Source of the DNA: a phage | Length of the DNA: 937 bases | Reading direction: 5' to 3' (one strand) | Sequence record: M16226.1 | Shown here: piece after piece, positions 158 to 542 of the stretch | Position numbering within the stretch: the first letter of the stretch is position 1 | Layout of the letters: every line of letters starts with the position of its first letter | Notes under the pieces: generated by a model | The model's database searches: none | What the model saw: the letters and a program-made list of their open reading frames with translations, nothing else | What the model was told of the DNA's origin: nothing | Program-made: the position numbers and the translations under genes

Positions 158-269
158 CACGCCTCCAGTTAAATCCCCCTTTGTTTTAGTATCCCCATCA
201 AAATTAAACGCGTTAGAATGCGATCTAGGACGTTTTAGGCATATATTAGAATTATTCACTGCGTAGGAA

Positions 270-289
270 TACTGTATAAATATACAGTA
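270..289. promoter_or_regulatory. LexA (SOS) box, CTGT-N8-ACAG type
   Basis: TACTGTATAAATATACAGTA matches 19 of 20 positions of the E. coli-type LexA consensus TACTGTATATATATACAGTA, with both CTGT (272-275) and ACAG (284-287) arms intact and an AT-only spacer. A -10-like TATAAA lies inside the box (275-280), but no convincing -35 was found on either strand, so the regulated transcript is not identified. Confidence 0.6.
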
Positions 290-297
290 GGATAACC

Positions 298-319
298 TGG
301 GGATAAGTCTGTTGATAAC
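298..319 (-). promoter_or_regulatory. DnaA box doublet (module copy 1)
   Basis: TGGGGATAA (298-306) and TGTTGATAA (310-318) each match 8 of 9 positions of the reverse complement of the DnaA box TTATCCACA. Start-to-start spacing is 12 bp. The 22-mer TGGGGATAAGTCTGTTGATAAC is repeated at 359-380 with 3 differences. Confidence 0.5.
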
Positions 320-358
320 GCTTCAAAATGGCTAGGATTTTGTCAAGGCGAATCGTGC

Positions 359-380
359 TGTTGATAAGTCTGTGGATAAC
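359..380 (-). promoter_or_regulatory. DnaA box doublet (module copy 2) including one perfect DnaA box
   Basis: TGTTGATAA (359-367, 8/9) and TGTGGATAA (371-379, 9/9, i.e. a perfect TTATCCACA on the - strand), again 12 bp apart. Second copy of the 22-bp module at 298-319. Confidence 0.6.
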
Positions 381-403
381 TTAAATAACAGTGTTTCTCA
401 CTT

Positions 404-515
404 CCGTTTTTAAATACGAATCATTATCATTCGTATTCCGCTTTTAAATGAGAATCATTATCATTTGCATTTCACTTTTTAAATGAGATTGATTCTCATT
501 ATCATTCGCATTCAG
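404..515. repeat. Three tandem ~35-bp AT-rich direct repeats; candidate DNA-unwinding element
   Basis: The unit is approximately CG(C)TTTTAAAT-RMG-AATCATTATCATT-YGYATTYC. The TTTTAAAT cores end at 415, 449 and 484 (periods 34 and 35 bp); the ATCATTATCATT cores are at 420-431, 454-465 and 496-506 (copy 3 has a ~6-bp insertion). Each core matches the Fur-box 19-mer GATAATGATAATCATTATC at 13-15 of 19 positions. Confidence 0.6.
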
Positions 516-519
516 GCGA

Positions 520-537
520 GCAGGGCAATTGCCCTGC
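520..537. other. Perfect 18-bp palindrome GCAGGGCAATTGCCCTGC; candidate operator for a dimeric DNA-binding protein, or hairpin/terminator
   Basis: Exactly self-complementary over 18 bp, centred on CAATTG. On the + strand it could form a 7-bp GC-rich stem with a 4-nt loop followed by GCTTTTG (a weak T-tract). It lies exactly between the AT-rich repeats and the first 15-mer direct repeat. Confidence 0.45.
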
Positions 538-542
538 GCTTT

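Follow-up and report, generated by a model that had tools for sequence, protein, structure and literature searches.

The window analysed here, a stretch of 937 nt, belongs to bacteriophage T5. Database comparison aligned its whole length at 99% identity with positions 9140-10149 of AY543070 and 9061-10069 of AY587007, collinear with the region that AY543070 labels, for precisely this stretch, "injection stop signal (iss)". According to the same record, the iss occupies the inner end of the left terminal repeat, within the first-step-transfer DNA that is first to enter the cell. Relative to the T5 reference genomes the window lacks approximately 70 nt, amounting to one repeat unit to the right of the box pairs described below (one unit of repeat C, or DRE; window ~435-459 compared with 1960-2004 of locus L001). 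Since this unit is present in three complete T5 genomes, the window derives from a variant or older partial T5 sequence. Neither the window nor its segment 262-405 returned any similarity in searches (megablast and blastn) of 72,556 plasmids and 5,426 E. coli genomes.

T5 annotations place no gene between palindrome C (134-153), a terminator-like palindrome located where the rightward genes finish, and the inner limit of the terminal repeat. The module of interest within this tract spans 131 bp (272-402, + strand; AY587007 annotation, Davison 2020) and is organized as IRD'-spacer-IRC' in the naming of Wang 2005 and Davison 2020, with inverted repeat D' at 272-312 and inverted repeat C' at 364-402 in the AY587007 annotation, which is attributed to Wang et al. 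2005. Several other readings of the module and its surroundings were rejected. Merely short mechanical ORFs overlap it, e.g. one of 24 aa at 252-326 on the - strand, and the T5 annotations are gene-free here. No Rfam family was recovered, the sole match being mir-1252 at 447-500, with 23 bits against a gathering score of 70. When 265-405 was folded as a single strand (z = -2.6), the only hairpin was that of the LexA-type palindrome described below, which is the source of this value; the DnaA boxes contribute none, and a local DNA structure at the boxes was discarded. A promoter at the LexA box was likewise set aside, as a scan of the window yielded three promoter-like sites against 2.3 expected, none of them convincing.

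The module contains two copies of the 22-mer TGKKGATAAGTCTGTKGATAAC, as the first-pass annotation had described: TGGGGATAAGTCTGTTGATAAC at 298-319 and TGTTGATAAGTCTGTGGATAAC at 359-380, with starts 61 nt apart. Both fit TGKKGATAAGTCTGTKGATAAC and are identical at 19 of 22 positions; copy 1 reads gTTATCAACAgacTTATCCCCAg on the - strand. A repeat search recovered the same pair one base longer (297-319 and 358-380, 87%), and these longer intervals are "direct repeat B" copy 1 and copy 2 of AY587007. Each 22-mer does comprise two DnaA boxes of one orientation, 12 nt from start to start and separated by a 3-bp gap. When 9-mers were compared against TGTGNATAA, the reverse complement of TTATNCACA, one mismatch was found in box b1 (298-306, TGGGGATAA), in b2 (310-318, TGTTGATAA) and in b3 (359-367, again TGTTGATAA), and none in b4 (371-379, TGTGGATAA); all four lie on the + strand. 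The gap is GTC in both copies (307-309 and 368-370), and each copy ends with a trailing C (319 and 380). Together with its flanks, b4 forms the 11-mer CTGTGGATAAC, which is found identically at R1 and R4 of oriC in MG1655. Five sites with at most one mismatch are present in the window against 0.93 expected, a number reached in 0 of 200 dinucleotide shuffles.

Recent ChIP-seq work in E. coli (Stringer, Fitzgerald and Wade 2024; PMC11317965) found DnaA almost only at same-orientation boxes with a gap of 2 or 3 bp. Either box may be imperfect, yet both are needed; mutating one of them, or widening the gap by 1 bp, abolishes DnaA binding (PMC11317965). The 13 E. coli double DnaA boxes tabulated there, which lie at ChIP-seq DnaA-bound regions, served to build a double-box position weight matrix. 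The pair at 359-379 scores 25.98 bits and that at 298-318 scores 23.46 bits, against 18.98 for the best of 200 shuffles; the T5 pairs would rank second and fourth among the 13 native sites, even though it was the native sites that trained the matrix. Box by box, the same-strand 9-mers match TTATCCACA at 8/9 and 8/9 in the first pair and at 8/9 and 9/9 in the second, so that the T5 pairs reach 16/18 and 17/18, compared with 13-17/18 for native E. coli sites. Across 11.5 kb of T5 terminal repeat, double boxes of at least 19 bits are confined to the module and its inverted copy. These data support both pairs as good candidate DnaA boxes that score like the best native sites. Moreover, same-orientation pairs with 3-bp gaps match the in vivo rule of E. 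coli (PMC11317965), and by this analogy the arrangement appears fit for cooperative DnaA binding, as the first-pass annotation had proposed.

The native double boxes (polA, purH, nrdA, DARS1/2, datA, mioC and oriC C1-R4; PMC11317965) resemble the T5 pairs in their single orientation and 2-3 bp gap, and in both sets one perfect box is usually joined to a weaker one. Native sites, however, occur one pair at a time, in chromosomal promoters or DnaA-control loci, and have demonstrated binding, whereas the T5 pairs are predicted sites, placed two at a time 61 nt apart on incoming linear DNA, with a second module in inverted orientation and each module beside a LexA box.

This LexA/SOS-box-type palindrome, TACTGTATAAATATACAGTA, occupies 270-289, 8 nt upstream of b1, and corresponds to "palindrome D" of AY587007. 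It matches TACTGTATATATATACAGTA at 19 of 20 positions and has the CTGT-N8-ACAG form by which LexA operators of Gammaproteobacteria are recognized, making it a putative operator. The centre of the palindrome (272-287) reads either ATAAATAT or ATATTTAT, switching from phage to phage and also from the left to the right copy of the module; the two versions are mutual reverse complements, which suggests exchange between inverted copies or hairpin-mediated inversion. Between the palindrome and b1, the first-pass annotation had placed a weaker site, GTAGGATAAC (287-296, + strand), extending the phased DnaA array into the LexA box. This site departs from TGTGNATAA at three positions and is separated from b1 by 2 bp, and when combined with b1 it scores 12.66 bits, which falls inside the range of the shuffles (mean 10.0); a third phased DnaA site is not upheld. 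Almost every one of the 49 modules aligned below retains it as GTAGRATAAC; it is missing from the module of a Proteus phage (GTTATAACC) and from the second copy of a Pectobacterium phage. The overlap of this site with the LexA box does exist, but it extends merely to the last 3 nt of the palindrome. Because the weak site is not separable from chance by its score, the competition between LexA and DnaA suggested on its basis is conjecture.

The module recurs as an inverted copy ~3.2 kb to the left in T5, outside the window (AY543070 ~6098-6231), where it carries TTTTACACAgacTTATCCACA and CTGTATAAATATACAG. This left-hand module lies between divergent pre-early promoters, at 5938-6012 (- strand) and 6411-6489 (+ strand) of AY543070. 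CTGT-N8-ACAG motifs, like the double boxes, are confined to the two modules within the 11.5 kb terminal repeat. The shear point has been estimated at AY587007 9618, which alignment offsets convert to ~489 of the window; the pairs of the right-hand module, that of the window, are located ~110-190 nt inside it.

Further repeats follow the module to the right. The AT-rich repeats at 413-509 ("direct repeat C", palindromes E-I) hold palindromes resembling Fur boxes, e.g. GAGAATCATTATCATTTGC, which match GATAATGATAATCATTATC at 15-16 of 19 positions; the best are found at 485-503, 444-462 and 450-468, and the observed number was reached in 0 of 1000 local shuffles. Similar palindromes come after the module in most relatives, Klebsiella phages among them, although the control region was not clean. 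Units like those of T5 repeat C occur in Escherichia phage anhysbys (NC_052656, Phapecoctavirus), a member of an unrelated 150-kb myovirus group, as three tandem copies of AAATGAGAAT(C/G)ATT(A/C)TCATTT (~700-790 of locus L206, compared with window 382-473), and DnaA and LexA boxes are absent near them. That unrelated coliphages have these units in common hints at a site for a host protein. Further right still, the 15-mer "direct repeat D", TGTGCAAATCCGACA, is present at 543-557, 589-603, 646-660 and 727-741, with variants at 615-628 and 752-766. Its opening TGTGCAAAT differs from the relaxed DnaA box TGTGNAWAA at a single position. No copy has a partner 2-3 bp away, however, so the double-box rule makes these repeats unlikely DnaA sites.

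To follow the module beyond T5, where 600 phage records match window 200-540, loci were gathered with a pattern independent of the boxes (the 15-mer repeat further right) and with blastn hits in a phage collection. The resulting alignment holds 49 distinct modules, both right-hand and inverted left-hand copies, from Tequintavirus, Epseptimavirus, Sugarlandvirus and Pantoea phage AAS21, with the features in the same order. Relative to TTWTNCACA, at most one mismatch is found in b1 of 47 modules (27 exact), b2 of all 49 (22 exact), b3 of 43 (9 exact) and b4 of 48 (39 exact), and b4 is exactly TGTGGATAA in 37. The specified box positions have an entropy of 0.25 bits, compared with 0.80 for the spacer between the pairs and 1.05-1.17 for the flanks, and the box position that varies most is the N of the consensus (1.05 bits). 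The inverted copies often replace b2 by TTTTACACA or TTTTGCACA, two or three bases away from TTATCCACA and still within the consensus. In every module both pairs have a 3-bp gap, which is free in sequence in pair 2 (1.25 bits) and almost invariantly GTC in pair 1 (0.10 bits). The distance from pair to pair, measured from b2 to b4, is likewise constant in 49/49 modules, including those of Klebsiella phages with a diverged spacer. The 39-nt spacer itself (320-358, + strand) keeps its length and is mostly free in sequence, except for GTCAA at 342-346, which is conserved in 100% of the modules. In short, box identity, the 3-bp gap and the pair distance are kept in the 49 modules while the spacer sequence drifts.

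Some positions in this alignment are less readily ascribed to DnaA. Three of the four T5 boxes are off-consensus, which counts against a DnaA reading. One change, G to T at box position 4 (TTATCAACA, 0.80 bits), is recurrent at a position where the strict consensus permits no variation. After b4, a conserved tail, TTAAATAACAGTGTTTCTCACT (381-402, + strand; 0.23 bits), completes inverted repeat C' and holds a small inverted repeat of the form AGTG-N5-CACT; this element, AGTGTTTCTCACT (390-402), is nearly invariant in the 49 modules. To our knowledge, neither GTCAA nor AGTGTTTCTCACT matches any host-factor motif that could be named.

The LexA-type box is as conserved as the DnaA boxes. Its CTGT and ACAG arms have an entropy of 0.09 bits across the 49 modules, and its adjacency to the boxes is real and conserved. 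Among the analysed loci, boxes of this type were located at 6211-6230 of L200, 5749-5768 and 5820-5839 of L201, 5165, 8262 and 8939 of L202, ~4069-4088 and 8042-8061 of L204, and 10004-10023 of L205. More distant relatives, which were found through the A1 protein, retain a recognizable module. Pectobacterium phage DU_PP_V carries two LexA boxes, each followed by a pair, with another copy elsewhere in the first-step region. In Proteus phage VTCCBPA139, a LexA box precedes a pair with a 2-bp gap, the only other spacing that DnaA tolerates in vivo (PMC11317965), followed by one more perfect box and by GTGTTTCTCACT, which is shared with the tail of the aligned modules; AGTGTTTCTCACT is present there too. 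Vibrio phage Brizo, with an A1 protein 31% identical, has TTATCCACAaccTTATCCACC, then 9 nt, then TACTGTATAAATATACAGTG. In Vibrio phage D411, 7 nt separate a LexA box from a lone perfect DnaA box; LexA boxes but no high-scoring pair were found in the 15.8 kb examined, which counts against a model based on pairs. Overall, a near-consensus LexA operator stands beside DnaA boxes in at least five lineages of Demerecviridae (Markadamsvirinae, Sugarlandvirus, Mccorquodalevirinae, Novosibvirus and Ermolyevavirinae); in the phages of enterobacteria, palindromes resembling Fur boxes come after it.

Double boxes as such are less distinctive. Perfect TGTGGATAA-N3-TGTGGATAA pairs occur in at least 120 viral contigs of all sizes, with CTC, ACC and GTC as the preferred gaps among the matches listed, and double DnaA boxes thus seem, from sequence matches of this kind, to be widespread in phage genomes generally. 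No LexA motif was found within 60 nt of any of the 134 perfect DnaA pairs among the matches listed, in 120 other viral contigs, which suggests that the combination of LexA and DnaA sites is specific to the T5 phage family.

The duplicated 22-mer itself is already known as direct repeat B of the T5 iss region. It is the same object as direct repeat B of the T5/BF23 iss, with coordinates that correspond one to one, the same four boxes, the same 3-bp pairing and an existing hypothesis of a DnaA tether. As cited by Davison (2020; 10.1101/866236), three of the four boxes noted in the sequencing paper of 1987 were variants (two of them TTATCAACA, the other TTATCCCCA), the fourth being the consensus TTATCCACA. 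For 25 T5-like phages, the Davison preprint (bioRxiv 10.1101/866236) described eight boxes in each first-step region, paired at a distance of 3 bp, together with a spacer constant at 52 bp and, near 6 kb, the module in inverted copy. It proposed that membrane-bound DnaA grips the boxes and thereby halts injection, and argued against a role in replication. It also stated that the T5 origins are located close to the genome centre and that the replication genes lie on second-step DNA, unexpressed when the iss DNA enters (10.1101/866236). Later papers repeat this account of the DnaA boxes, as a proposal. LexA, SOS and Fur are not mentioned in the text of Davison 2020, and we found no paper linking T5-like phages with a LexA box or raising a part for Fur, the older subscription literature lying outside the search; nor did the searchable literature yield any report on T5 growth or transfer in dnaA mutants. 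As worded in the first-pass annotation, then, the finding adds nothing to the published description. The present analysis goes beyond that account in the scores of the sites relative to native pairs, the constraint across 49 modules and the LexA box in distant relatives; the LexA box beside the pairs is possibly the new part.

Two chromosomal loci of E. coli invite comparison with the module. In oriC, two arrays with gaps of 2 bp face each other, and the locus also has an unwinding element and an IHF site. The T5 module recalls it in the 11-mer CTGTGGATAAC shared with R1 and R4, and, in most right-hand modules, in the strong outer boxes (b1, b4) that enclose a weaker b2 and b3. Unlike in oriC, all T5 boxes run in one direction with 3-bp gaps, and the T5 origins have been mapped elsewhere (Davison 2020). 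Same-orientation pairs at up to one mismatch were not found in oriC or in the dnaA promoter. The second locus is the uvrB promoter/DARS1 region; uvrB carries a LexA operator, and the region is a natural case of DnaA boxes close to an SOS box, as in the T5 module. DARS1 is listed upstream of uvrB (PMC11317965). The uvrB/DARS1 locus is a chromosomal regulatory region with another arrangement of boxes, and no sequence similarity between it and the window was found.

Taken as a whole, we lean, with moderate confidence, towards the view that each box pair of the iss direct repeat B binds a cooperative dimer of host DnaA as the DNA enters, with a role in two-step transfer and not as an origin. Each pair would be occupied by the host initiator upon entry, before any phage protein exists. 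The pairs, the neighbouring LexA-type box and the inverted module 3.2 kb leftwards would then form a complex of host protein and DNA just inside the first-step pause point, and the most likely role of the pairs would be in two-step DNA transfer. The steps of this reading are not equally firm. The sequence comparisons establish that the window matches the T5 iss, that the sites are of high quality and that they are conserved. That host DnaA binds the pairs is likely, given the ChIP data from E. coli; that its binding causes or controls the pause in injection is offered purely as a hypothesis. The stop in DNA transfer needs no protein synthesis, according to the literature on T5. A sequence-specific reader must therefore pre-exist in the host or in the virion, which fits a host protein. 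Against the role of a brake, a protein bound to DNA that is already inside the cell would pose no obvious block to the entry of further DNA.

A reader encoded by the phage is one alternative. In this case a protein such as A2, which together with A1 is needed for second-step transfer, would recognize the repeats, and their likeness to DnaA boxes would be coincidence or mimicry. According to published descriptions, A2 binds DNA as a dimer and associates both with A1 and with the membrane, and the conservation of the module exceeds what DnaA needs, at the GTC gap of pair 1, the trailing C, GTCAA and AGTGTTTCTCACT; these elements imply that DnaA cannot be the sole reader. The T at position 4 points the same way, being a stable departure from consensus in b2 and b3 of right-hand copies. 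Nevertheless, we consider it improbable that a phage protein explains the boxes themselves. In score the pairs are on a level with the best native sites of E. coli, variation is concentrated at the N of the consensus, and even the TTTTACACA and TTTTGCACA replacements fit TTWTNCACA. The gap is only ever 3 bp or 2 bp, the two lengths that DnaA accepts, and its GTC sequence is the third commonest among the 134 perfect pairs in unrelated viral contigs among the matches listed, so that it is not specific to T5. The pause, moreover, occurs without synthesis of phage protein.

The sites might instead regulate or insulate pre-early transcription, with DnaA and LexA acting as repressors or roadblocks that end the first-step units and exert no brake on entry. 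The setting of both modules lends this idea some appeal: the inverted copy sits between divergent pre-early promoters, that of the window comes after palindrome C at the end of the rightward genes, and DnaA is described as a transcription regulator and roadblock (in PMC11317965). However, neither module overlaps an annotated promoter, promoter-like sites in the window are at the level of chance, and the terminal repeat has no gene downstream of the right-hand copy. We accordingly regard a purely transcriptional role as unlikely.

It is less probable still that the sequence is kept only as the long inverted repeats IRD' and IRC', pairing with the copy at ~6 kb in recombination, circularization or a DNA knot, with the resemblance to DnaA boxes lacking function. 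The whole 131-bp module is indeed found inverted 1.9-4.3 kb away in most T5-like phages, and a knot or circularization role was discussed by Davison. Left and right copies are, however, only 71-78% identical overall, and the boxes are retained: among the 18 rows of the alignment binned as left-hand, two of which are right-hand copies, TTWTNCACA is exact in b1 of 13, b2 of 17 and b4 of 16. Retention of the boxes at this level of divergence argues for selection on the boxes and not on the identity of one arm with the other, and the single-strand fold of 265-405 contains the hairpin of the LexA palindrome only. Least probable, and the weakest rival on context, is a DnaA-dependent replication origin of plasmid or iteron type, for which the anatomy is superficially suitable (boxes at 298-380, AT-rich repeats at 399-510, and four to six copies of the 15-mer direct repeat TGTGCRAATCCGACA at 543-766 as iterons) and for which the paired DnaA boxes of oriC R4-C1 and of the origin of plasmid RK2 offer a precedent (PMC11317965), but which is contradicted by the want of any match in the plasmids and E. 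coli genomes searched, by the absence of an initiator gene among the window ORFs and neighbouring T5 annotations, by a module duplicated in inverted orientation within one terminal repeat, which is not an origin-like layout, and by the T5 origins reported near the genome centre, with replication genes on second-step DNA (Davison 2020). With no initiator ORF and no plasmid or E. coli homology found at the locus, the replicon context implied by the first-pass annotation gives way to the T5 iss.

The reading of the pairs as sites for host DnaA in two-step transfer may extend beyond T5. Across the family the module could serve as a landing pad for host proteins, at which the regulators LexA and DnaA, and Fur in addition, would pause the entry of DNA or gate the second step according to the state of the host; the states so sensed may be DNA damage, replication status and iron. 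We raise this extension tentatively and think it rather unlikely. The halt of T5 DNA entry at 8% has been a puzzle since the 1960s, and the box pairs are the leading candidate for its cis signal. The rule established in 2024, that DnaA in vivo binds almost only at pairs 2-3 bp apart, makes this old sequence observation sharply testable.
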